DNA of 64,000 nucleotides from the NCBI GenBank assembly GCA_965221605.1, contig CBDCSK010000004.1:209331-273330 (forward strand). Direction: 5' to 3'. Made by a program: the position numbers and the translations under genes. The notes beneath the pieces are model-generated. The model had not been told where the DNA came from. It saw only the letters and a program-made list of their open reading frames with translations, and did no database searches. This document shows positions 16,546 through 50,862 of this stretch, in pieces. The DNA is from Candidatus Aldehydirespirator sp. Lineage in GTDB: Bacteria; Actinomycetota; Acidimicrobiia; Acidimicrobiales; Aldehydirespiratoraceae. The first letter of the stretch is position 1. Each line of letters starts with the position of its first letter.

Positions 16546-18366
16546 TCAATGGAGGGTCACGCCTTCGGGCGGGGGACGGAACGTGCCCCAGCATTCGATG
16601 GTGCCACCGGCGCGCAGGCCGCACGAGTGGCTCGGGCTTGTGGAGACCGACGTGAACCGCCCGCCCGGAGCGTCGAGCAGCCCCGCGTAGTCCAGGCCCC
16701 AGCACTCGACGGTGCCATCGGTGCGCACCGCGCAGGAGTGGTTGCGGGCAGCCGAGACGGAACTGAACGCGCCGGCGGGGGCCTCGAGGAGCCACCCATG
16801 GTCGAGGCCCCAGCATTCGACGGTGCCGTCGGTGCGCACCGCGCAGGAGTGGCTGGCCCCCACCGACACGGCGACGAAGTTCCCGCCGGGCGCGGGCGCC
16901 CAAGCGTCTCCCCGGGATCCCCAGCATTCGATGGTGCCGCCGGCGTGCAGCCCGCAGGCGCGGCTGTTGCCTACCGCCAGCGAAACGAGGGGCTCGTCTG
17001 CACCGCCGGTTCCGCCGATGTGGAGGATGGTCGTACTGTCACTGCTGGCCTGCACGTTGCTCCAGCACAGGGCCATGCCGTCGGCGTCCAGTACGCAGGC
17101 CTGGCCGCCTCCGGCGTGGACCGCAGTGAAGGGGCCGGCGGCCCGTTCGCCGGCACGATCTACGGCCTCCACGACGCGCTCGAGCACGGCCTGCACCTGC
17201 TCCGGAGAGTTGGGCGGCCCGACGCCCCAGCACTCGACGGTGCCGCCGGCGCGCCGGCCGCAGGAGAAGCCCGTTCCTGCCGCGACCGACATGAACCGTC
17301 CACTCGGGGCGTCGGCCTGGCCGCGGTCGTTGGCCCCCCAGCACTCGACGGTTCCGCCGGCTCGGACCCCGCAGCTGTGCTCCTCGCCGGTGGACACTGC
17401 GCTGAACGACCCACCGGGCGCCTCCAGTTGTGTGACGAAGCGCCGGCCCCAGCACTCGATGTTCCCGTCCACCCGGACCCCGCATGAGTGGTCCCAGCCG
17501 GTGGACACCGACGAGAACCGGCCCTCAGGCGGTTCGATCTGGCCCCAGTGATTGGCCCCCCAGCAGTCGATGGTGCCGCTGGTGCGCAGCCCGCAGGAAT
17601 GCCGGCCCCCGGTGTCGATCGCGCTGTACCGGCCGTGCGGGGCGTTGCTCTCATCGATGAAGCTGCGACCCCAGCACTCGGCGGTGCCGTCGACACGCAG
17701 ACCGCACGACTGGTCCCCACCCGCCGAGACCGACACGAACTGCCCGGCAGGGGCTTCGGCCTGGCCCCAGTGATTGTCGCCCCAGCACCGGACACCGCCG
17801 CCGCTGCGCAGCACGCAGGAGTGCCCGAATCCGGCCGCGACCCCGAAGAAGTGCCCGCCGGGCGCGATGACAGCCTCGGTCTTGGCGCTGCCCCAGCATT
17901 GGATGTCGCCGTCGACTCGCAGAGCGCATGAGTGGCTGTCGCCGACGGTGATGTCCACGTACTGCCCGCTGGGGGCTCGCAGCAGCTCCAGGAAGTCCAA
18001 GCCCCAGCATTCGATGGTGCCGCCCACCCGCAGGCCGCATGTGTGCCGGCGACCTGCGGACAGGGTCGTGAAGGTGCCCGCGGGCGCGTCGATCTGGTCG
18101 CTGTGGTTGGCGCCCCAGCAGACGGCGGTGCCGTTGGTGCGCAGCGCGCAGGTGTGGCGGCTGCCGGCGGCCACCGCCGCGAATCTCCCGCTTCCGGCGC
18201 GCTCCAGAGTCCCCGACTCCTCGACGACGCTGGCGACGTTGCCGGGATCGCTGGCGCCGTTCGCTCCGGAGACGGCTGGACTCTGCCCCCCGGTGCTGTC
18301 TCCGGAGCACCCGGCCACCGTGAGCATGAGCACCGCCGCGATGCATGCTGCCGATCGCAGCCTCAC
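16546..18366 (-). CDS. RCC1-like repeat lipoprotein (14 short repeats)
   Basis: Signal and lipobox MRLRSAACIAAVLMLTVAGC. 14 repeats of ~39 aa with consensus H(S/T)CG(L/V)RxDGTxECWG. Confidence 0.85.
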   Translation of the reverse strand: MRLRSAACIAAVLMLTVAGCSGDSTGGQSPAVSGANGASDPGNVASVVEESGTLERAGSGRFAAVAAGSRHTCALRTNGTAVCWGANHSDQIDAPAGTFTTLSAGRRHTCGLRVGGTIECWGLDFLELLRAPSGQYVDITVGDSHSCALRVDGDIQCWGSAKTEAVIAPGGHFFGVAAGFGHSCVLRSGGGVRCWGDNHWGQAEAPAGQFVSVSAGGDQSCGLRVDGTAECWGRSFIDESNAPHGRYSAIDTGGRHSCGLRTSGTIDCWGANHWGQIEPPEGRFSSVSTGWDHSCGVRVDGNIECWGRRFVTQLEAPGGSFSAVSTGEEHSCGVRAGGTVECWGANDRGQADAPSGRFMSVAAGTGFSCGRRAGGTVECWGVGPPNSPEQVQAVLERVVEAVDRAGERAAGPFTAVHAGGGQACVLDADGMALCWSNVQASSDSTTILHIGGTGGADEPLVSLAVGNSRACGLHAGGTIECWGSRGDAWAPAPGGNFVAVSVGASHSCAVRTDGTVECWGLDHGWLLEAPAGAFSSVSAARNHSCAVRTDGTVECWGLDYAGLLDAPGGRFTSVSTSPSHSCGLRAGGTIECWGTFRPPPEGVTLH

Positions 18367-40185: not shown

Positions 40186-40204
40186 GTGGAGCTAAGGGGA
40201 ATTG
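40186..40204. repeat. Island-distal att repeat (copy of the tRNA-Ala 3' end)
   Basis: Identical to 50789-50807. Flanking bases differ on both sides. Confidence 0.85.
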
Positions 40205-40372
40205 TTTTCTTGGTTCATGCATCCTCAATCTTTCTCACCTGTTACGCCTTCATACAGGTCAGAGGCGGAATTGTTGCGTCATTCGTGCTCAGTGGGTATC
40301 ATCCGATCGCATCACTAAAGTGACAACAAAGTTGACAACGCCAGTTGGATTCTCTCGAAGGAATCAGATCCG

Positions 40373-41518
40373 ATGAGCCGATCGTTGACCGCCACATTCG
40401 TAAGGAATGTTAGCCAGCCCGGAGCCTACGGGGACGGCCGCGGAGGCTACGGGTTGACTCTGCGGGTTCGCCGCAGAGTCAACGGCGGGTTGTCGAAGGT
40501 GTGGGTGCAGCGGCTCCGCATAGACGGCCGCGCCACCAACCTTGGGCTCGGGGCGTACCCGCTGGTCAGCTTGCGTGAAGCCCGAGACGCCGCCTTTGAG
40601 AACCGGCGCTCTGTCGCGCATGGCATCAACCCGCGTACTGCTGTGACCCCCACCCTCGCTGATGCCGTTGAGGCGGTCATTGCGTCGCGCTCGACTTCAT
40701 GGAAGGACGGCGGCCGCTCCGCTGAGATATGGCGCTCCTCGGTGCGTAACCACGCCGCGGGCCTGCTGCAGCGCCCGGTGGACACCATCACCACCGGCGA
40801 TGTGCTGGCATGCATCACCCCGCTTTGGTCCACCGCCCATGACACCGCCAAGAAGGTTCGCCAGCGGCTCTCTTTGGCGTTCAGGTGGGCAATCGCGGCC
40901 GGGCATCGCCCAGATGACCCCGCGGGGGAGGCGCTGTTGGCGGCGCTGCCCCGCAACACCAGCACCCGTCGCCACATCGCAGCGTTGCCGCCGCACAAGG
41001 TGCCCGCTGCTCTCGCGGCTATCGACAACTCGGGCGCTCACCCAACCACCAAAGCCGCGATGTGGATGCTGGCTTTGACCGCGACCCGCTCCGGTGAGGT
41101 CCGAGAAATGCGCTGGAACGAGATCGACGAAGACATCTGGACGATCCCAGCCGAACGCACCAAGATCGGCCGCGAGTTCCGGGTGCCGCTGAGCCGCCAG
41201 GCGCTCGCCGTACTCGACGATGCGCGCTGCTACAGCGACGGCAGTCCCGGCTCGCTGGTGTTCCCCTCGGCACGCGGTAGGCAGATCACTGCCGAGGCCC
41301 TCTCCAAGCTCTGCCACGAACTCGACCTGGAAATGACCCCCCACGGGTTCCGCTCGAGCTTCCGGGACTGGGCCGCGGAGTCCGGCGTCTCCCGGGAAGT
41401 GGCCGAGGCGTGTCTGGCGCACGTCATCAAGAACACCGTCGAAGCTGCCTATCGGCGCTCTGACCTGTTGGATCAGCGCCGCGAGGTCATGGACGCCTGG
41501 GCGCGCTACATCACATAA
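40373..41518 (+). CDS. int: Tyrosine-type (P4-like) site-specific integrase
   Basis: 381 aa. N-terminal DUF4102-like YGDGRGGYGLTLRV...WVQRLRIDGR. C-terminal catalytic blocks ALTATRSGEVREMRW, HGFRSSFRDWA and LAHV...AYRRSDL. Confidence 0.9.
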   Translation: MSRSLTATFVRNVSQPGAYGDGRGGYGLTLRVRRRVNGGLSKVWVQRLRIDGRATNLGLGAYPLVSLREARDAAFENRRSVAHGINPRTAVTPTLADAVEAVIASRSTSWKDGGRSAEIWRSSVRNHAAGLLQRPVDTITTGDVLACITPLWSTAHDTAKKVRQRLSLAFRWAIAAGHRPDDPAGEALLAALPRNTSTRRHIAALPPHKVPAALAAIDNSGAHPTTKAAMWMLALTATRSGEVREMRWNEIDEDIWTIPAERTKIGREFRVPLSRQALAVLDDARCYSDGSPGSLVFPSARGRQITAEALSKLCHELDLEMTPHGFRSSFRDWAAESGVSREVAEACLAHVIKNTVEAAYRRSDLLDQRREVMDAWARYIT

Positions 41519-41668: not shown

Positions 41669-41935
41669 CTAGCGATCAGAGGCGAACCCGAGCACGGTGT
41701 TAGCTGCAGCGCTGGCGGCTTTGATCGCAAGAGCGCGGTCAGCTTCGCCGTCCCAGTCGAAGGCAGCAAAGGCTGCTAGGAACGCCGATCTCCAAGCCGG
41801 CCAGCCGCTCCCGGCGTCCAGGTGGGTACTCCAGTCAGGCACATCGGCGATGTGGGCCGCTAGGGCACGTTCAGCAGCGGCTCTCATCTCGGGCCAGCAG
41901 TCGACGGCGGTAGCATCGCACGGTTCGCGTGTCAC
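41669..41935 (-). CDS. Small hypothetical protein, translationally coupled to the upstream SLH protein gene
   Basis: The GTG at 41935 overlaps the upstream stop (GTGA, 41932-41935). 88 aa with no recognisable motif. The longer 121-aa form would overlap the upstream gene by ~100 nt. Confidence 0.4.
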   Translation of the reverse strand: MTREPCDATAVDCWPEMRAAAERALAAHIADVPDWSTHLDAGSGWPAWRSAFLAAFAAFDWDGEADRALAIKAASAAANTVLGFASDR

Positions 41936-42789
41936 GATGTTTCGCAGTTCACCGTGTGCGCCCACTGCTGTAGGAGCTTCGTGGTAGCCCACATGAACCC
42001 GGGGGAACTGCTCGTGAAGCCAACCAGACCCCACACGGCATCGGGTGCAGGGTCGTAGAGGTCGCCCTGTCCGGCGAGGTCCTCATCTAGCGTGTGGTAG
42101 GGCACCACCGAGATCAAGGTCTCACCAGCATCAATGTCGGAGCTGGGATCGTCCCCGAAACTGAACGAACTCTCACCGGCGACGCGATATGCGAAGCCGT
42201 GCAGACTCGTGGTCGCTCCGTTCGGGCCGGTCACTTGGACATCGACGTTTCGCTCGTCGGGGTTCCACATCAGCACAGCTAGCCATCGGCCCTCGGCATC
42301 GCTCAAGTCCCAGGTGAACTCGACTGGTCCGCTTCCACACAACACCCGCGCCGCTTCGCCATCGAAGGTTGAGGTCCCCTCCCAGGTGGTCCCTGTCGGT
42401 GGCGCTGCTGTGCCGTCATCTGTGGCCGTCGTCGCCTCGGCGGTGTCGTCGGGGGTCTCGCCGCCTCCGGCCATCTCATAGAGGACCCGCATCATGTCGG
42501 CGCGAGTGAAGTCCTCAGACACGTCTGCGCCCAGGATCTCCTCGTAGTAGCGGTTCAGGAACACCGTCGCGTGCCGGAGACTCAACGGCTGAGACGGCCG
42601 AAACGTGCCATCGCCATATCCGGCCGTCACCCCCACCTCGGCGGCCCAGTTGATCGCAGCGAAGTCGGGATGCTCCGGTGGCACGTCACTGAACCGCTGG
42701 GTGGACTGCGCCGCAACCGTACCCGCGACGCTCAGCGCCACCACAGCAACGACGCCGCAGGCCGCGAGCCACGCAAACATCTGAGCCAC
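41932..42789 (-). CDS. Secreted protein with one N-terminal S-layer-homology (SLH) domain
   Basis: Signal peptide MAQMFAWLAACGVVAVVALSVAGTVAAQ, followed by FSDVPPEHPDFAAINWAAEVGVTAGYGDGTFRPSQPLSLRHATVFLNRY (SLH pattern). The C-terminal ~170 aa are unassigned. Confidence 0.65.
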   Translation of the reverse strand: MAQMFAWLAACGVVAVVALSVAGTVAAQSTQRFSDVPPEHPDFAAINWAAEVGVTAGYGDGTFRPSQPLSLRHATVFLNRYYEEILGADVSEDFTRADMMRVLYEMAGGGETPDDTAEATTATDDGTAAPPTGTTWEGTSTFDGEAARVLCGSGPVEFTWDLSDAEGRWLAVLMWNPDERNVDVQVTGPNGATTSLHGFAYRVAGESSFSFGDDPSSDIDAGETLISVVPYHTLDEDLAGQGDLYDPAPDAVWGLVGFTSSSPGFMWATTKLLQQWAHTVNCETS

Positions 42790-43237: not shown

Positions 43238-43849
43238 TCAGCCCAGCCCGAGTCCCCCGCTGCGGTAGCGGCCGAAGCGGTCGCTGTGGTCCTGGGTGGC
43301 GCGTAGTTCGGCGTCGCGTTCGGCCGCGGAGTTGGCCACCTCGTCGATGAAGGATCTCATCTCGGGAGGGATGACGTTGTGGTAGTAGGCGTCGTCTATG
43401 AGTTCAACCATGGCCTGAGTGGAGGTGATCCCGCTTTCGAGGCTGAGCCGTACCGCGTCATCGAAGTCGCGGTCGCGGGCCGCGAACAGCTTCATCGCCA
43501 ACAGGTACCTGTCGTCGGGGCTGTAGGCCTGGAAGTTCTCACCGACATACAACGGCCGCGGGCGCGGTTCCAAAGCAGCCGTGCCGGCGGTGCCGCCGTC
43601 GTTAATCCAGTGCCACTCCAAGTTGTTGCGCTCCGCCACCACAGCCACAGCCCGGCGAAAATCGGTGGGGAAGTCACCGCCGATGAGGTCCACGTCATAG
43701 GTGCGGCGGTCGCTCCACTTGAACGCAAGCGCGGCCCCGCCACCGACGAGCACCCGCACCGGCTCGGCCCGGCCCTCCAGTTCGGCGTCAAGCTCACCAA
43801 AGAGCACTCGCAGCCGCTCAGCGTCGAGTTCGTCGAAGCGTTCAGGCAC
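43238..43849 (-). CDS. Nucleotidyltransferase-fold protein (DUF6036/AbiEii-like)
   Basis: 203 aa with VRVLVGGGAALAFKWSDRRTYDVDLI (a minimal NTase G-x-x...D-x-D-like pattern) and LLAMKLFAARDRDFDDAVRL. Confidence 0.55.
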   Translation of the reverse strand: MPERFDELDAERLRVLFGELDAELEGRAEPVRVLVGGGAALAFKWSDRRTYDVDLIGGDFPTDFRRAVAVVAERNNLEWHWINDGGTAGTAALEPRPRPLYVGENFQAYSPDDRYLLAMKLFAARDRDFDDAVRLSLESGITSTQAMVELIDDAYYHNVIPPEMRSFIDEVANSAAERDAELRATQDHSDRFGRYRSGGLGLG

Positions 43850-43852
43850 CGG

Positions 43853-44251
43853 CTAGGCCTCGAGCAAATCGGCGCCGAAGAACACGCCGTGAGCCGCGCA
43901 CACCTCCGGAGAGCGCTTGCGGACCACATCCCCGAAACCGCTGTTGAGGCGAACACCGAACAATGCAATGCCGGGATCGAGGCGGCAGCGGTGGACCCAC
44001 TCGGGTGCCGCGACCGCGTCGCGGTCACACAACGCATGGACCACTGTGGCCATCTTGGCCGCCACAACTTCGCTCGTTCCTGCAGGCGGCGGCAGCGCCA
44101 GCACCGCGTCGCGTTGTTCGGGATAGCGGCGCCAATCCATCACGAACTGCACCAGCGGCCGGTCAATGGGCCAGGCCGGATTCACGAGCTCAGCCGCGAG
44201 GCGCCGCACCGTCATAGCGGTACTACGGGATCGGCTCGTGGGCTGACTCAC
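43853..44251 (-). CDS. Hypothetical protein, upstream partner of the NTase-fold gene
   Basis: 132-aa ORF ending 3 nt before the NTase gene start. No motif recognised. Confidence 0.45.
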   Translation of the reverse strand: MSQPTSRSRSTAMTVRRLAAELVNPAWPIDRPLVQFVMDWRRYPEQRDAVLALPPPAGTSEVVAAKMATVVHALCDRDAVAAPEWVHRCRLDPGIALFGVRLNSGFGDVVRKRSPEVCAAHGVFFGADLLEA

Positions 44252-44561
44252 AACCCAAGTCTAGGGTCCCCGGCTCCGCCAGGACTGCGCGTCACAGTGG
44301 CAGTCCCTGGAGCTGATTGGCCTCAGCCAACCCACCGCCTCTCCATCGGCGACACCAACATTCACCCGGCACTGCGCACTCCCTGCAAGCCAGCGACACA
44401 ACCGCATCGCAGCCCGAACCAAAAACCACGAGATGCATCGTCGTCGCCGCAGCGTTCGCGAGCGTTCCTCAGCGTTCCTGTGGCCCGCAGACCGCTCCAG
44501 CAGCGGCGTGTCAGCCCGCCAAATGTGGCGGACGCGCACACCTTGTGACCTCGGCGCGCTC

Positions 44562-44566: not shown

Positions 44567-46186
44567 CCTGAATCCACCGATGGGCTGGTCGGGGTGGGCT
44601 GGTCGGGGTGTTTGTGGGGGTGTTTGGCTGGTTGGGGTGCGGCGGGTGTTGTTGGGGCGTGTTGGGCCGGCGGTTGGGACTGGGCTGGTTTGTGGCGCTC
44701 AGGGGGGTGTGTTCTGGGTGGCGCCGGGCCCGGGGCTGGGGGTTCAGATGAGTTGGGGGAGGTTGCGGGTGTGTGTGAGCGCGGCGGTGAATTGGTGTGC
44801 CCAGGGCCAGTTGAGCGGGAGGCGGAGTTTGTGTCGGTGGCTGTGGTTGACGAGGCGTCCGGGCACGGCGAGCAGCCGCCGGCGGACGGTGGCGGCTGCG
44901 GTGAGCCGTTCGGGGTGCTGTGTGTGTCCGAGTCGTGCGGTCCAGCGGGTGAGGTTGTGGGCCAGCACGGCGCAGGCGAGGTGGGCGGCGTTGGCGAAGA
45001 ACCTTCCGGAGGGGCAGTGGGCGAGGCCGTTGTCTTTGAGGTCTCTGATGGCGAGCTCGACTCGGGCGTGGCCGCGGTGGTAGGCGTCGGCGGTTTCGGT
45101 GTCGAGGTCGTCTCTGTTCGTGATGAACGCGTGGTGGCGCCAGTCGGGCCACAGCTCGCGTTGGGGGCCTTCTGGGAGTCGGGTGCGGCGCACCACGAGG
45201 CGCAGCTTTCGGGGGCCACAGGGGTCGCGGCGGCTCGTTGTGATGGCGCACTCGGCGACCTGGGCTTCCCCGTCGGGGTAGGCGATCGGCGTCCAGGCGG
45301 TCTCGTCGATGCCGTCGATGGCTGCTTTGACTTTGGCGTTCTGTGGGATCGTGACCGACCAGCGGGCCTTGTATGTGTCGAGCTTTGCGATCAGCGCGTA
45401 GGAGAAGAACCCGGCGTCGGCGCGCACGGTGAGCTTCGTGCCCGGCGCGAGGCGTCCGAGGCGGGCCAGGGTCTCCGCGGCGAAGCGGACATGGCCGCGC
45501 TGGGAGGACCCCGACCGCATCCTGGCGTGGAGCACCTCGCCGGTGTCGTCCCGGGTCGCCGCCAGCGGGTGGTAGCCCCAAACCTTGGTGTGGCCGTAGG
45601 CCGCGCCCTGCTTGGACTTGCCGTGGACCTCACAGACCGTGGAGTCCAGATCCACCGTCATCTCCGCCGCTGCCGGCGCCGCGCCCGAAGACCACGCCCG
45701 GCTGAGCGCCAGCTCCAGGGCGCGGTCGAACTGGCGCACATGGCCCCAGGTGAAGGACCGCAGCCACGTCCCCAACGTCGACGGCGCCGCAGGCTCAAAG
45801 CCCAGCACCGCCGAAGCGGACCCGGCCCGCAGCCTGTCGGCGTCGCCGATGAACGAGCCGCCCACCAGCATCGACGCCACCACCGACAGCGCCTTCGCCC
45901 CGGACCCACGGCCCGCCGCGGGCGGGCGCACCGCATCGTCGATGAGCGCCTCCAAACCCAGCCGGCCCATCACCGTGCCCGCCAACAGCAGCCCCGCATC
46001 GGCCACCAGCGAAGCGTCGTCGAACACCGCCTCGATCCCGTCGATACCACCCGCTACGCTGCTCACAGGAAGTGCCTCCTCACATGGCCAGAATCACTGT
46101 TGACTCAAACAGCATTCTCCCATGTAAGGAGGCCTTTCCGGTGGACGCGCCAACCCCACAAACCTCACCGCGCCGGTGGATCCAGG
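44567..46186 (-). mobile_element. IS1380-family insertion sequence, complete (1620 bp)
   Basis: Terminal inverted repeats CCTGAATCCACCG (44567-44579) and the reverse complement of 46174-46186 (CCTGGATCCACCG), 12/13 matches. Single transposase ORF. 5-bp direct repeats flank the element. Confidence 0.9.
44744..46066 (-). CDS. IS1380-family DDE transposase
   Basis: 440 aa with ...DLDSTVCEVHGKSKQGAAYGHTKVWGYHPL..., ...VRADAGFFS... and ...ELAIRDLKDNGLAHCPSGRFFANAA.... Layout is typical of IS1380/DDE_Tnp_1-like enzymes. Confidence 0.85.
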   Translation of the reverse strand: MSSVAGGIDGIEAVFDDASLVADAGLLLAGTVMGRLGLEALIDDAVRPPAAGRGSGAKALSVVASMLVGGSFIGDADRLRAGSASAVLGFEPAAPSTLGTWLRSFTWGHVRQFDRALELALSRAWSSGAAPAAAEMTVDLDSTVCEVHGKSKQGAAYGHTKVWGYHPLAATRDDTGEVLHARMRSGSSQRGHVRFAAETLARLGRLAPGTKLTVRADAGFFSYALIAKLDTYKARWSVTIPQNAKVKAAIDGIDETAWTPIAYPDGEAQVAECAITTSRRDPCGPRKLRLVVRRTRLPEGPQRELWPDWRHHAFITNRDDLDTETADAYHRGHARVELAIRDLKDNGLAHCPSGRFFANAAHLACAVLAHNLTRWTARLGHTQHPERLTAAATVRRRLLAVPGRLVNHSHRHKLRLPLNWPWAHQFTAALTHTRNLPQLI

Positions 46187-46191
46187 TTTAG
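46187..46191. repeat. Target-site duplication TTTAG (right)
   Basis: See 44562-44566. Confidence 0.8.
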
Positions 46192-46914
46192 TGCAAGCGT
46201 GTGGCGGCCAACAAGCCTCACGGACGGACCGCAGGAACGCTCGTTACCCAATGGAGCCCCAACGACCGCCGACACTACCGGCCATCCCCCAACGCCGGAC
46301 CACGAACCCCGGCGCTTGACAATCACTAACGCACAGGAACGCAGCCCCGAATCACCGGGAACGCAACCCCTCAACGACCTGCCAGTACCCCCCTGCGTAG
46401 CACCGCGCGGGTCAACCGCTGCCGGTGCTGGCCCTTGTGGCGGCCGCCACACCGGGGCCTCGCCTCTAGCGGCTGATACATCGTCGGCACCTCCTTGCAA
46501 TTGTGCGGCTGTCTCGGCTGCCACAAACGGCCCCAGTCGGGTGTCTGGCCTGGGCCATCCGAGGGCCGCGTACGCGAACGTTCCTCGACCCTGCCGAGGA
46601 GGTGCATGGTGAAGCGGCCGGCTACCGGTGACCAAGCTCCGCATAGCCGGCATGCGGTGAGGACTCATCGCGGTCACTGTCGTGGGGATGCGGCGTGACC
46701 CTCGGTGCCAAGCTGTGCCTGAGCTATGCGAACATCTGTTTGTGACAGGAAGTCCACGGCTGTAACCTGTTTGGGCGGGCGGAGCCTTGGCGTCCTCTTC
46801 GAGGGTTCGGGCGACGGCGCACGAGCGAGATTCCTGGAACTCCGGCCGACTCAGGCTGGACGGGTTTGTAGGTATCGGTGTAGCACTGGCGATCGATGGG
46901 AGGAGTCGAGAGAG

Positions 46915-49900
46915 ATGAGGGTCTTTGTCTCGTCGGTCACGGACGGCTACGAGCAATACCGAGCGGCGGCGAGGGCTGCCATCGAAGCGTCGGGGCACGT
47001 GGCGGTCGTTATCGGGCTAAACCACCATGCTTCGCCCTCTTCGCCACGCGCGGGATGCTTCAGCGAGATCGAGGACAGCGATGTTCTGGTGTTGCTGCTC
47101 GGCAAGCGTTACGGAGATCTTCAGTCATCCGGCAAGTCGGCCACACACGAGGAGTGGGCGTATGCCCGAAGCATCGCCAAGAGGATCCTGGTCTTCGTAG
47201 AGGACGTGGAGGATCGAGAGGATGCTCAGCGGGACTTGTTGAGCGAGCTAGGAGGCTGGGTCGATGGCTCTTTGTGGAGCACATACGACGCTCCCACCGT
47301 CCTGATCACAGAGATTGTGAAGGCCTTGCGGGCACTGGAAGGAGATCGTGCTCCGGCGTCAGCCCTAGAGGCCGCTGAGAGGCTCCCTCCCGTTTGCCGT
47401 GAGCGTATCGAAGCACTACGCGCCGTGGATCCCAGTGCTGCCGATCTGCTTGTGGGCGTGCTGTCGGATCCCGCTTCGCGGCAGTCCGGTGCGCTGTCAC
47501 ATCTGGCCGACGATCCGCCCGGGTGGCTGGCAGGCGCGGGTCACACCGCCTGGGAGGCGATCAGCGGCTTTCTCGATGCCCACGGCCTTCCAGGCGCTGA
47601 TCCGATGCGGATGCAAGCAGTCGAGGCTGGCTCTCCACATAGCGGATTGCATTTGGTTCGGCAGGCGGTTGCCACAGCCGAAAACGGAGACAGCGAGCGC
47701 GCCGAGAATCTGCTGTCCCAAGTGCCCCCGGACCATCCTCTACTCGAAGCAGGGCGCGCTCATGCCAGAGGCACCCCTACATCTGCTGTAGAGGTGATCC
47801 GGGGTGCGCGGCTGCACGAGTCTGATGACGTGGATCTGGCGCGTTACAGCGTTGCCACACTTGTGTGGGCGTACTGGCTCCTACAGCGTCCCGAATCGGC
47901 TGTGGAAGTTCTGCGACAGGCAAGTCGGCGATTTCCCGATGGAGCTTGGATTCACTTGCAACAGGCGAACATGACGCTGGCCATGGTCGACCAAGTCGGC
48001 CTGGACTCATCCAACAGTCACGACTTGCTGAGCGAGGCAGCGGAACTTGCGCTGAAGTCTCGGGACTTGTTCCGGTCCTGGGACGGCCCCTCGCACCTCG
48101 CAGTCGTTATTGCCATGCAGGCACTCCTCGTTCTCGCCGATCCGCAGCGTGTCATCGATCTAGGACTGTCGGCCCCCACGGGCGAAGCGACGACCTCGGA
48201 AGCAGCCGATCCAGAGGTCCAAGGCAAGCTTGCTCACGCCTACTTGATGTTGGGGCGCTTCAGCGACGTAGACACGCTGAGACTCGATCGGATTGATCCG
48301 TCCGAGTCAGCTCTCATTCGGGCAATGCAGGCCCGCGGGCTTGATGATCCCTCTGCGCTCTCAAGGATGCGTCGGGCCGTCATTCAAGCTGATGATGTGC
48401 CCTCGCGCCGGGGAGCGCTATTGGGGCTCGCGCAGTTGGGTGAAGTTGACGCTGAGGAGATGTCGCGACTATCGCCAGCAGACAGTGCGCTCCTGAGCGG
48501 GGTGGCGGCGTTGAGCCAAGGTGACTATGCAGAGTCGACGAGGCTTCTCGAGCCGTACCATCTCGAATCGTCCATTCACGCCAGCTATCTCGCTCAGGCG
48601 CAACAGCAGGCTGGTGCTGTTGATGAAGCGATGGACACGCTGTTGGCGGCTGCCGCACGCTTCATGGTCGATTCCCTCTACGAACCTGCCGTCGTGTTGC
48701 TGATTGATCAAGGCAGGCTCGATGAGGCGGCGTCGATTGCAGCTGACGCGCAGGCTCGTAGTCCATCGCGCTCCGCCCGACATCGGTATGGAACCTTGCT
48801 GGCTGCCATAGCGGAGCGTCGTCAGGACTGGCAGGGAATGGAGTCCCATGCGCGAGCTGTGGTTCGGGAGTCGCCACAGGACAGCGAGACAGCGTGGGCC
48901 GTGGTGTATGCATTGCACCGACAGGTCAAGAATCAGGACGCGTGGGCGTACGTCGTAGCACATGACCTGGTCGCAACGAACGAAGAACTGGTCCGGCTGA
49001 CCGCAGCGGTTGGCTTCGCCGCCGATGCCTCGGAGGAAGATGCTGATCGTCTGCTCCAGATCGCAGAGACGTTCTCCGAGTCAGAGCATGCAGCCGGCTC
49101 TGCTCTCTTGGCGCTTATGGCGCGCGGCGACCGACTCAGATTGAGCGATGAGCAACGCGCAAGGCTCAGTGAACTCACCGAGGATTTTCTCGCACGCTAC
49201 CCAGAGAGCGACGTGTTCAGGACGTACTCGGGGGAGGCCGAGGAACTCGTCGAGATCATGACTGCCGACCAGCGAGAACGGGTCGAGCGTCTAACGCCGC
49301 TGCTCAATCGGGTCCGCCACGGACAGTTGCCCTACGGCGTGCTTCGACAGATCCGTGAATTGCCCTATGCAGAACTCTTGTTGTCCAGATCTGCGATGGA
49401 CATCACTGCCATCTCGGCGGATCAGTATCAGCGTGACCGAGAGCGGTGTGTCGTCAAGGAGGCTCTTGAGGGCACAGTCGCGGTGGACACGAGTGTAGTC
49501 GCACTTGGAATCCACTCGGAGCTTGACGTGGGACGTATGGGCACCGCGTTCGGCGATGTGCTGGTGGCCGACGAGTTGCTCATCGATGCTCGCATGGCGG
49601 TCGCTTCGGCCAGGCGTCTCGCAGACGGCGTCTTCGGCTACGACTCCGGGCTTGGTCAACCCACATTCTCGGAGATCGACGATCACCAACGAGCTGCGGC
49701 GAGAGAAAGAGCCGAGCGAGCTCTGGGAATGTTGAGCGGATGGAAATCAGTGAGGAGCGGTGATCTTCCGCCGCCACCAGAGATTGAAGAGGACCACTTA
49801 AGGCCATGGGATGCAGCGATTCGGGTGGCTCTCTCGAATGGATGCGCCTTATGGTGCGACGATCTCGCACTGCGCTGCTTGGCCCAGTCCGTGGGGGTCA

Positions 49901-50526
49901 ACGCCTTCGGAACATGGGCCCTCTTTGAGGTGCTGTCACCCGAAGATGAGTGGGCTTGGCTGCCAGAGACTGAGGAGATAAAGCTCCGTTTGCTCCGGGC
50001 TCAGATTACCGACGTCCCCATCTCTTTGCCGGAACTCTCGCAGCCAGGTGATACCGACGAAGAACCTGACATCGCAGCGCAACTCTTCCTGCGTCGCCCC
50101 TATGCGTGGAGCGAGAATCTGGCCCAGACCCATAACTGGTATCTCAGGCTCTTCCGCACTCTGGTCGGCGGGCCGCACCGGCAGTTGGCGCCGGGACTGC
50201 TGTACGCAGCTTCCTATGGGCTGGCGGCCGCCGTGGAGCCCTCAGAGCGGCAGGGGGCGATTGGCTCTCTTCTCGCATCAAGCTTGGCCGGCATTAGCGA
50301 TCCCGAACTGGTGCCGATTCTGCTCGCAGCTGCGAGGTATGCCGTCAGAGAGCTTGACCCTGCGGCTTCCTTGGACCCGTTGGAGGACACCGTTCGCCAT
50401 CTCCTCGCAGGCTGGGAACCCGCGTTCGGCGCTGGCCCGGCTGCCCAAGCTGTGAGGTGGCTGTTCTCGCGACTTGAGTCTGACGACCGACGCACTGTCA
50501 TGGCAATCGTACTGGGCAACAGGTAA
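46915..50526 (+). CDS. Large (1203 aa) DUF4062(TIR-like)-helical/TPR-like repeat-PIN-like domain protein; candidate defence/conflict effector
   Basis: ATG at 46915 preceded by GGGAGGAG. N-terminus MRVFVSSVTDGYEQYRAAARAAIEASGH...IEDSDVLVLLLGKRYGDL...SATHEEWAYARSIAKRILVFV matches the DUF4062 pattern. About 750 aa of Ala/Leu-rich helical repeats follow. C-terminus carries TVAVDTSVVALG, VLVADELLIDA and ALWCDDLALRCLAQSVGVNAFGT (PIN-like acidic motifs). Confidence 0.7.
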   Translation: MRVFVSSVTDGYEQYRAAARAAIEASGHVAVVIGLNHHASPSSPRAGCFSEIEDSDVLVLLLGKRYGDLQSSGKSATHEEWAYARSIAKRILVFVEDVEDREDAQRDLLSELGGWVDGSLWSTYDAPTVLITEIVKALRALEGDRAPASALEAAERLPPVCRERIEALRAVDPSAADLLVGVLSDPASRQSGALSHLADDPPGWLAGAGHTAWEAISGFLDAHGLPGADPMRMQAVEAGSPHSGLHLVRQAVATAENGDSERAENLLSQVPPDHPLLEAGRAHARGTPTSAVEVIRGARLHESDDVDLARYSVATLVWAYWLLQRPESAVEVLRQASRRFPDGAWIHLQQANMTLAMVDQVGLDSSNSHDLLSEAAELALKSRDLFRSWDGPSHLAVVIAMQALLVLADPQRVIDLGLSAPTGEATTSEAADPEVQGKLAHAYLMLGRFSDVDTLRLDRIDPSESALIRAMQARGLDDPSALSRMRRAVIQADDVPSRRGALLGLAQLGEVDAEEMSRLSPADSALLSGVAALSQGDYAESTRLLEPYHLESSIHASYLAQAQQQAGAVDEAMDTLLAAAARFMVDSLYEPAVVLLIDQGRLDEAASIAADAQARSPSRSARHRYGTLLAAIAERRQDWQGMESHARAVVRESPQDSETAWAVVYALHRQVKNQDAWAYVVAHDLVATNEELVRLTAAVGFAADASEEDADRLLQIAETFSESEHAAGSALLALMARGDRLRLSDEQRARLSELTEDFLARYPESDVFRTYSGEAEELVEIMTADQRERVERLTPLLNRVRHGQLPYGVLRQIRELPYAELLLSRSAMDITAISADQYQRDRERCVVKEALEGTVAVDTSVVALGIHSELDVGRMGTAFGDVLVADELLIDARMAVASARRLADGVFGYDSGLGQPTFSEIDDHQRAAARERAERALGMLSGWKSVRSGDLPPPPEIEEDHLRPWDAAIRVALSNGCALWCDDLALRCLAQSVGVNAFGTWALFEVLSPEDEWAWLPETEEIKLRLLRAQITDVPISLPELSQPGDTDEEPDIAAQLFLRRPYAWSENLAQTHNWYLRLFRTLVGGPHRQLAPGLLYAASYGLAAAVEPSERQGAIGSLLASSLAGISDPELVPILLAAARYAVRELDPAASLDPLEDTVRHLLAGWEPAFGAGPAAQAVRWLFSRLESDDRRTVMAIVLGNR

Positions 50527-50666: not shown

Positions 50667-50694
50667 TGCGGTACCGCAACTGCGGTACCGCAAC
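50667..50694. promoter_or_regulatory. Two tandem 14-bp units (TGCGGTACCGCAAC x2), each containing the 10-bp palindrome GCGGTACCGC; possible recombinase/regulator binding sites near attR
   Basis: Read directly from the sequence. Located ~95 bp inside the island from the att core. Confidence 0.3.
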
Positions 50695-50788
50695 GCTCCA
50701 CTACGGGAAAGTGACAATAGAAGCAACATACCCAACCGTTCTGGGTTCCATTTATTGTTGTTGAACTGGGCCTTTATGATCTTGGTAC

Positions 50789-50807
50789 GTGGAGCTAAGG
50801 GGAATTG
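50789..50807. repeat. att core within the tRNA-Ala 3' end (copy of 40186-40204)
   Basis: GTGGAGCTAAGGGGAATTG is the reverse complement of the T-arm and acceptor 3' strand of the tRNA. Confidence 0.85.
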
Positions 50808-50862
50808 AACCCCTGACCTCTTCCATGCCATGGAAGCGCTCTACCAACTGAGCTATAGCCCC
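50790..50862 (-). tRNA. tRNA-Ala (anticodon GGC)
   Basis: Reverse complement: GGGGCTATAGCTCAGTTGGTAGAGCGCTTCCATGGCATGGAAGAGGTCAGGGGTTCAATTCCCCTTAGCTCCA. Cloverleaf folds. Anticodon loop is AT-GGC-AT. Has the G3:U70 identity pair. CCA is not encoded. Confidence 0.9.

Follow-up and report, generated by a model that had tools for sequence, protein, structure and literature searches.

A DUF4062-TPR-PIN protein carried by a tRNA-Ala island of Candidatus Aldehydirespirator is a candidate antiviral member of the TGP family

The DNA analysed here is a stretch of 64,000 nucleotides from Candidatus Aldehydirespirator sp. (GenBank assembly GCA_965221605.1, contig CBDCSK010000004.1, positions 209,331 to 273,330), which we call the window. 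Our subject is a gene for a protein of 1203 amino acids (aa) that joins a DUF4062 domain, a TPR solenoid and a PIN domain in one polypeptide. An original prediction, made from the sequence alone, had described it as a novel single-gene defence system. We find that its core belongs to a family that is already described, the TGP (TPR-GreAB-C-PIN) family, and that the protein is probably an antiviral member of it with an unlisted effector. The gene and the boundaries of the island that carries it are the following:

46915..50526, + strand: gene of the DUF4062-TPR-PIN protein, 1203 aa, stop codon included (open reading frame and public homologues)
46898..46905, + strand: Shine-Dalgarno-like GGGAGGAG, 9 nt before the ATG at 46915 (read from the sequence)
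50789..50862, - strand: tRNA-Ala(GGC), the integration target (ARAGORN)
50789..50807: copy of the attachment (att) core in the 3' end of the tRNA, GTGGAGCTAAGGGGAATTG, exact 19-bp direct repeat
40186..40204: distal copy of the att core at the other island end, GTGGAGCTAAGGGGAATTG, exact 19-bp direct repeat
40373..41518, + strand: tyrosine integrase with Arm-DNA-bind_3, Phage_int_M and Phage_integrase domains (NF007246)

The in-frame open reading frame (ORF) spans 46726-50526 on the + strand, and the ATG at 46915 is the likely start, because GGGAGGAG lies upstream of it, because the N-terminal start MxVFVSS is common to all homologues in the alignment and because a public protein (P0001) also has 1203 aa and is 100% identical. 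A longer version of 1266 aa, starting at 46726, was rejected since homologue support for it is absent. A scan for sigma-70 promoters upstream of the gene found nothing; such a scan is uninformative for a high-GC (guanine plus cytosine) actinobacterium.

The island is 10.6 kb long and the gene is its last cargo gene. The integrase gene begins 169 bp inside the distal repeat (40186-40204). GC content is 0.61-0.65 across most of 40-51 kb, with 0.68-0.71 at 44-46 kb and flanks of about 0.70; over 47-51 kb it is 0.607-0.628, compared with 0.70-0.75 in the flank to the right and about 0.70 farther to the left. An integrase, a repeat at the 3' end of a tRNA gene and a deviant composition, the marks of a tRNA-integrated island, are all present, and the tRNA-Ala integrative island is real. 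The original prediction was right here on each count: the ORF list ranks the 1203-aa gene as the largest of the window; the tRNA, the 19-bp repeats and the integrase confirm it as the terminal cargo of a tRNA-Ala island; and its GC content (0.607-0.628) is indeed below that of the surrounding chromosome (about 0.70 or more).

The protein can be divided into five parts:

46915..47289, + strand: DUF4062 (TIR-like) effector domain, aa 1-125 (PF13271, profile match to 10wc, model)
47290..49134, + strand: helical stalk and TPR solenoid, aa 126-740 (TPR_19, all-helical model, Foldseek)
49135..49464, + strand: conserved helical linker, aa 741-850 (F758, R761, P763, S765, G803, P806, Y807, Y818)
49465..50034, + strand: PIN domain of the PF20698 (TGP) type, aa 851-1040 (PF20698, Foldseek, conserved acidic residues)
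50035..50523, + strand: all-helical C-terminal domain, aa 1041-1203 (predicted local distance difference test, pLDDT, of about 90 in the model; part of the constant module)

In Pfam, PF13271 (DUF4062) matches aa 2-84 with an E-value of 8.8e-18 and 64.7 bits (gathering score 24.7), the best TPR_19 stretch is aa 532-588 (E 7.9e-10, 39.4 bits against a gathering score of 25), and PF20698 matches aa 878-991 with 24.8-26.4 bits (gathering score 27.8) and E-values of about 1e-5 to 2.8e-5. An AlphaFold2 model of the full length, built on an alignment of 39 homologues, has a mean pLDDT of 87. It gives a five-stranded alpha/beta domain at aa 1-124 and helices only at aa 127-850; then follow an alpha/beta PIN domain (aa 854-1007), into which a beta-hairpin is inserted at 905-920, and a C-terminal domain made of helices at aa 1053-1200. 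A separate model of aa 741-1203 reached a pLDDT of 89 and a predicted template modelling (pTM) score of 0.86. Foldseek searches with the full model found the TPR solenoids of Ski3, Ctr9, OGT and APC/C (E 1e-7 to 1e-5) and nothing beyond such generic solenoids, and there was no meaningful match in a viral structure library. With the C-terminal model they found PIN proteins, namely VapC4 (5h4h), 1y82, 2mdt, 3i8o, Utp23 and PRORP, mostly with probabilities of 0.93-0.99 and target-normalised TM-scores of 0.42-0.63; the PRORP match is lower (probability 0.63-0.72, target-normalised TM-score 0.33-0.38). Searches of the window protein in NCBIfam and PHROGs gave no informative match.

The three domain assignments of the original prediction are right. 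The N-terminal DUF4062 domain is confirmed by PF13271, and the Ala/Leu-rich, helical, TPR-like middle by TPR_19, by the all-helical model, by Foldseek and by the composition of the protein (Ala 15.2%, Leu 12.7%); we infer that the solenoid of aa 126-740 serves as sensor or scaffold. The missing Walker A motif was verified by a motif search, since no [AG]xxxxGK[ST] occurs in the protein; furthermore, Pfam and PADLOC found no NTPase family. Finally, the acidic, PIN-like motifs noticed at the C-terminus correspond to D858, D886/E887/D891 and D982/D983, and overlap the PF20698 match at aa 878-991.

At the level of the family, sequence comparison makes the PIN assignment firm: PF20698 is matched by 39 of the 41 family members (best E 3e-12) and by 35 of the 37 remote relatives (best E 2.9e-16). 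D858, S860, D891, D982 and D983 do not vary among the family members and, together with D1033, are kept in 30-37 of the 37 relatives, which have 20-36% identity. The protein thus has both the alpha/beta fold (Foldseek) and the conserved acidic residues (alignment) that characterise the PIN nucleases (clan CL0280).

PF20698 is described as the 'PIN domain associated with the TPR-GreAB-C-PIN system' and derives from the work of Kaur, Iyer, Burroughs and Aravind (eLife 2021; PMC8195603). According to these authors the TGP system is widespread and mostly stand-alone, and its constant region comprises TPR repeats, a GreA/B C-terminal domain and a novel form of PIN domain, preceded at the N-terminus by EAD10 or one of 13 effectors, which include REase, HNH, PNPase, TIR, SIR2 and peptidases (PMC8195603). 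They proposed that the Gre domain docks on RNA polymerase that has been commandeered for viral transcription, that the PIN domain cuts the extruded transcript and that the N-terminal effector is a suicidal back-up (PMC8195603). The name TGP and a validated member, Agp of the Bab/Agp system of E. coli ECOR25, are found in a later preprint, where Agp and its small amyloid partner Bab defend against phage T5 and mutations in the Gre-like (GreA/B-C) domain of Agp abolish defence (bioRxiv 10.1101/2024.11.07.622273). In the PIN mutant D762N defence was also lost; because the level of the Agp protein fell markedly (same preprint), this loss is confounded by instability.

The window protein shows the features of this family: a C-terminal PIN domain of the same family PF20698, a TPR array upstream of it (the helical solenoid of aa 127-740), a single polypeptide that has no NTPase, a variable effector on a constant core, and a mostly stand-alone gene with few conserved neighbours and variable neighbourhoods. 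In addition, relatives with PNPase, DUF4365 or TIR have the same conserved linker and helical C-terminal domain in collinear arrangement. The original prediction had taken the architecture to be unlike described systems. This does not hold: given the shared constant core and the swapped effectors, the architecture is of the described TGP type (PMC8195603, PF20698), and the lack of an NTPase is normal for it. There are also differences. The effector is DUF4062, a GreA/B-C domain is undetectable and, unlike Bab/Agp, the protein has no amyloid-signalling partner, a Bab-like partner being absent because the effector is fused.

The constant core was delimited with its 463-aa C-terminal module (linker, PIN domain and helical domain), which matches 605 protein clusters in a set of 1.84 billion representatives. 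Among the best 150 of these 605 clusters many matches are collinear from end to end and lie at the C-terminus of proteins of 1100-1600 aa. DUF4062 is carried by 6 of the 147 new representatives among the matches listed. Other domains found at the two ends of the core are:

N-terminus: PNP_UDP_1, in 17 of the 37 remote relatives
N-terminus: DUF4365, which we take to be restriction-endonuclease-like, in 2 of the 37 remote relatives and in P0204
N-terminus: region with no Pfam match, at loci L012-L016 and L023
C-terminus: TIR_2/SEFIR, in P0199
C-terminus: nucleotidyltransferase (NTP_transf_2/Polbeta), at loci L015 and L017 and in P0069
C-terminus: paired XRE-type helix-turn-helix (HTH) domains, in P0076 and P0084

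P0076 and P0084 are DUF4062-TPR-PIN proteins with the two XRE-type HTH domains added at the C-terminus, and P0199 bears a canonical TIR_2/SEFIR domain at the C-terminus in place of an N-terminal effector; therefore, both ends of the core can receive effector or regulatory modules. The nucleotidyltransferase domain follows the TPR-PIN core in relatives of about 1700 aa (L015 13151-14305, L017 11053-12195, P0069 aa 1362-1429), which have an N-terminal domain of about 300 aa that has no Pfam match. TIR_2 is also scored by three members of the window protein's own family. Comparison of these sequences shows that the constant core consists of the TPR solenoid, the helical linker, the PF20698-type PIN domain and the helical C-terminal domain, with DUF4062 in the variable N-terminal slot, and a core with swapped effectors is the pattern described by Kaur et al.

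The missing GreA/B-C domain, the one defining TGP trait that was searched for in vain, was looked for by several methods. PF01272 has no match in the window protein, the 41 relatives or the 37 remote relatives at the thresholds used and among the families listed. When hhalign was used to compare the family profiles with E. coli GreA (its sequence verified against 1grj) and with a profile of the GreA/GreB/Gfh1 C-domain, built from four sequences, the probabilities were below 1%. The best E-value of this Gre-C profile in an hmmsearch against all 211 collected proteins was 0.57, and phmmer with GreA against the collected proteins produced only noise. No Gre/Gfh1 fold is among the top 50 Foldseek hits of the C-terminal model, and no beta-rich Gre fold lies between the TPR array and the PIN domain, where both AlphaFold2 models are purely helical. 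The linker of aa 741-850 is at about the position of the GreA/B-C domain in canonical TGP proteins. The Gre element 'SP.G.ALLG...GD.V.V' has short resemblances at aa 723-743 and 816-833 that are statistically unsupported; the one at aa 723-743 is at the position expected from the S628-D762 spacing of Agp, and we regard both as leads only. A look-up of canonical TGP proteins returned one weak Streptomyces match by tblastn against plasmids and 18 proteins in a profile search with alignment A5. In at least some canonical TGP proteins the Gre domain is clear enough for the NCBI name 'GreA/GreB family elongation factor' (PMC8195603). The tables of Kaur et al. also hold MYB43588.1, a 1200-aa Acidimicrobiia protein listed as 'TPR+PIN', with no GreAB-C and no N-terminal domain (PMC8195603), the membership of which in the window protein's clade could not be confirmed by accession.

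As for the effector, two preprints of 2026 show DUF4062 to be a TIR-like NADase in single-gene antiphage defences. Swarozyc KpSwz is a DUF4062 NADase that acts by abortive infection; its trigger is the phage portal, and it requires E97 (bioRxiv 10.64898/2026.05.01.722283). Evangelion Eva01, in which a DUF4062 core is coupled to an auxiliary region, depletes NAD+ and also acts by abortive infection (bioRxiv 10.64898/2026.06.25.731849). DUF4062 occurs in human TEP1 and NWD proteins as well, and the DUF4062 domains assayed in these preprints (KpSwz, human TEP1, Eva01) all deplete or hydrolyse NAD+. Hence the TIR-like character proposed for the module by the original prediction is no longer inference only. 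The solved KpSwz structure 10wc matches our family profile with an E-value of 1.6e-8 at positions 2-197; the match reaches the first helices beyond the DUF4062 domain and stops at position 197. In a pairwise alignment the window residues S75-x-T77-x-x-E80 face S-x-T-x-x-A of the deposited 10wc chain, with E80 opposite the Ala at chain position 84; this fits the E97A construct, the numbering offset being deduced. The KpSwz structure is that of the E97A mutant, E97 being the catalytic residue (bioRxiv 10.64898/2026.05.01.722283). As the alignment pairs E80 with the Ala of that mutant, and E80 is invariant across the 39 homologues, E80 is by sequence comparison the candidate catalytic Glu, equivalent to E97 of KpSwz.

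The protein resembles Swarozyc and Evangelion in its N-terminal DUF4062 domain with a conserved catalytic Glu and in being a single gene on a mobile element; in those systems both the effector and a non-catalytic 'auxiliary' part are required. KpSwz and Eva01, however, have a short auxiliary region (326 residues make up the deposited KpSwz chain), whereas in the window protein TPR, PIN and C-terminal domain together fill about 1080 aa and include a second putative enzyme. No short auxiliary region of that type was found in it, and its remaining approximately 1000 aa have no counterpart in the KpSwz chain. Activation by a phage portal as in KpSwz cannot be assumed. A TPR-PIN partner for DUF4062 is not mentioned in the texts of the Swarozyc and Evangelion preprints. 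The logic of a TIR-type, NAD+-consuming effector with a repeat sensor is similar in Avs/STAND proteins, bacterial NLR-like proteins and Thoeris. Unlike Avs/STAND, the window protein has no P-loop or NACHT/NB-ARC module and it does have a PIN nuclease domain, and a STAND-like reading was rejected given the absent P-loop. Unlike Thoeris, it has no separate ThsA-like partner and no PADLOC match.

We collected 46 full-length homologues with 43-86% identity. A scan of species-representative genomes gave 28 loci, each in a different neighbourhood, mostly in metagenome-assembled genomes of Acidimicrobiia (Aldehydirespiratoraceae, Poriferisodalis, Poriferisocius) and in Caldilineaceae; the more distant loci are in Micromonosporaceae-type actinomycetes. 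Poriferisodalis and Poriferisocius are, to judge by their names, presumably sponge symbionts. The six homologue contexts for which gene calls were available are all defence or mobile-element neighbourhoods:

L029, L030 and L032: P0002, P0007 and P0022, each between hmaA, hmaB and hmaC of Hma systems
L031: P0021, beside an AbiLi-like ATPase (4.5e-86), HipA and two DUF1156 methylases
L033: P0038, 1.4 kb from an integrase with the three-domain architecture of the window's integrase
L034: P0036, among AbiEii, McrBC, transposases/insertion sequences and a reverse transcriptase

In the three Hma loci PADLOC identified HmaA (E = 0), HmaB (1e-209 to 0) and HmaC (1e-279), and Fic, Abi_C and HEPN genes are close by. 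Hma stands for helicase-methylase-ATPase, and the 'embedded' position within such systems is rich in defence genes (Payne et al.). At L033, P0038 is followed by an IS110 transposase and then by a DpdF/GajB-like helicase. The immediate neighbours are different in all seven contexts (the window and the six homologue loci). The cargo ORFs of the window are absent from the other loci except for a few matches: L006 and L011 have short integrase matches, L009 holds a relative of a 672-aa ORF, and L017 has a weak match of 57 aa. Since neither neighbours nor window cargo are conserved, the gene behaves as an autonomous mobile module.

Because the homologues sit in Hma systems, integrase islands and transposon-rich regions, the reading as a defence candidate is strengthened. 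This is the neighbourhood survey that the original prediction had suggested, and it turned out in favour of that part of its claim, three homologues being Hma-embedded; the claim of novelty fell, the TGP core being known.

The explanation that we prefer, with a probability of roughly 0.7, is that the gene encodes a stand-alone antiviral protein of the TGP family with a putative DUF4062 NADase effector, carried by an island. By analogy with the systems cited above, the protein would be auto-inhibited in the uninfected cell. Its TPR and C-terminal core would recognise a phage-derived cue, which might be a protein of the phage or a transcription complex that has been hijacked. The PIN domain, with its retained acidic active-site residues, would then cleave RNA first, and oligomerisation induced by the trigger would bring the DUF4062 domains together. 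These would hydrolyse NAD+ by means of E80, so that the infected cell would stop growing and the spread of the phage would be blocked (abortive infection). A switch by an NTPase would not be needed, as in other TGP proteins. Of any particular trigger, and of the sequence of events, we are much less confident than of the general reading.

Several points weigh against this reading. The functional interpretation of the clade relies on sequence comparison and analogy, and both the cue sensed and the RNA cleavage by the PIN domain are pure inference. The PF20698 score of the window protein is just under the gathering score, and Foldseek found the PIN proteins with weak E-values (0.1-0.8). The protein is not recognised by PADLOC-DB v2, and the other cargo ORFs of the window island showed no known defence homology in PADLOC, PHROGs, NCBIfam and PDB sequence searches; thus the PADLOC check included in the original prediction came out negative for the protein and for the other island ORFs. 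Finally, all the methods left the GreA/B-C domain undetected, with a sensitivity that is uncalibrated as there was no canonical TGP positive control, and therefore the step of docking on RNA polymerase is unsupported for the window clade.

A narrower version would take this last point literally. The clade would be a branch of the TGP family that has no GreA/B-C domain and does not dock on RNA polymerase, and the protein, sensing a phage protein with its TPR and C-terminal core, would fire a PIN RNase and a DUF4062 NADase without an NTPase. We consider this version possible but rather doubtful. If true, the protein would be a dual-effector immune receptor in a single polypeptide, with a sensing mode unlike the one proposed for TGP.

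Three other explanations have to be weighed, each of which is less likely than an antiviral TGP-family protein with an NADase effector. The one that concerns the effector alone supposes that deoxynucleotides or DNA, and not NAD+, are the target of the N-terminal domain, in which case the protein would be a defence that depletes nucleotides or modifies DNA. In Kaur et al. DUF4062 bears the label 'DrHyd', that is, nucleoside deoxyribosyltransferase or hydrolase-like (PMC8195603), the domain is distantly similar to nucleoside 2-deoxyribosyltransferase domains (bioRxiv 10.64898/2026.05.01.722283), and in the relatives the same slot is often occupied by the nucleoside phosphorylase PNP_UDP_1. Nevertheless, the DUF4062 domains of KpSwz, human TEP1 and Eva01 all deplete or hydrolyse NAD+, the catalytic Glu is kept and three family members score on TIR_2, so that we find this explanation unlikely. 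The PIN domain could suggest instead a module of addiction or stabilisation, in which a giant, self-contained PIN toxin keeps the island or the Hma locus from being lost: PIN domains are the classic VapC toxins, VapC-like PINs are the best specific Foldseek matches and the gene is carried on mobile islands. However, no small antitoxin-like ORF is conserved alongside, the flanking genes being different at every locus examined, an array of 700 aa of TPR with swappable effector ends is the signature of an immune sensor and not of a toxin-antitoxin pair, and the related Agp acts in phage defence. Addiction is therefore improbable.

Least probable of all, to the point that we give it hardly any weight, is a housekeeping protein of RNA processing or regulation that lies in a variable region by chance. 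TPR-PIN combinations are known in RNA metabolism, as the Foldseek matches to Ski3, Ctr9 and Utp23 recall, and the protein has no PADLOC match. A housekeeping gene, on the other hand, would fit poorly with the patchy distribution over 28 loci in differing neighbourhoods, the low GC content and the island location of the gene, the three homologues embedded in Hma systems and the effector ends swapped between close relatives.

What is new, then, is not a kind of system, as the family with the TPR-PIN core and the DUF4062 NADase are both known already. It is the presence of DUF4062 in the effector slot of a TGP protein, a combination that is unlisted in the tables of Kaur et al. and in the two DUF4062 preprints; specifically, none of 'DrHyd+TPR', 'DrHyd+GreAB-C' and 'DrHyd+PIN' occurs in the supplementary tables of Kaur et al. 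(PMC8195603). A further novelty is that the protein seems to lack the GreA/B-C domain. It joins two lines that are unconnected in the papers cited, the DUF4062 NADase effector and the TGP family, which is computationally predicted and has one tested member. The fusion is a compact construct in which to study how a TPR-PIN core switches a TIR-like NADase without an NTPase, it is a natural test of whether GreA/B-C is dispensable for TGP function, and it raises the question of whether the PIN domain and the NADase act in sequence. Furthermore, it is one more candidate among the defences of Acidimicrobiia and sponge symbionts, which have been little explored, and a further case of 'guilt by embedding' in Hma systems.

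Other observations concern the loci of the relatives. Two of the Hma loci (L030 and L032) adjoin Creatinase_N/Peptidase_M24 genes, in L032 on both sides, and the Hma-embedded homologues in three Acidimicrobiia genomes suggest a recurrent defence hotspot. At L012 and L013 the relatives, which have a different N-terminal domain, end about 70-85 bp from a tRNA-Thr(CGT) gene. This gene occurs there in pairs 1.8 kb apart (L012 13270-13343 and 15088-15161; L013 13246-13319 and 15063-15136), which suggests a further tRNA-targeted island whose target has been duplicated.

Regarding the window island itself, the genes outside it are ordinary actinobacterial ones, Rieske oxygenase and cupin genes to the left and a TIGR03617 F420-dependent oxidoreductase to the right. 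The 10-mer AAAGTGACAA has two copies in the 64 kb (0.03 expected), at 40317-40326 and 50708-50717, which sit just inside either island end and may be arm-type sites to which the island integrase binds. Between the stop codon of the DUF4062-TPR-PIN gene and the tRNA-Ala gene, the 14-mer TGCGGTACCGCAAC is perfectly duplicated in tandem (50667-50694), with the palindrome GCGGTACCGC inside each copy; this repeat could be a regulatory or a recombination site. Directly upstream of the DUF4062-TPR-PIN gene there are two ORFs of 389 aa (43379-44548) and 672 aa (44594-46612), both on the + strand and 45 bp apart; searches of Pfam, PADLOC, PHROGs, NCBIfam and PDB sequences returned no match for either. 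In L009, the relative of the 672-aa ORF (16994-17935) is 59% identical and lies about 4 kb from a family member, and the two ORFs may be further uncharacterised cargo or a defence pair. Finally, a 285-aa ORF of the island (41932-42789, - strand) matches the S-layer homology (SLH) domain with an E-value of 5.7e-10, and an SLH protein is an unusual cargo for a small integrative island.

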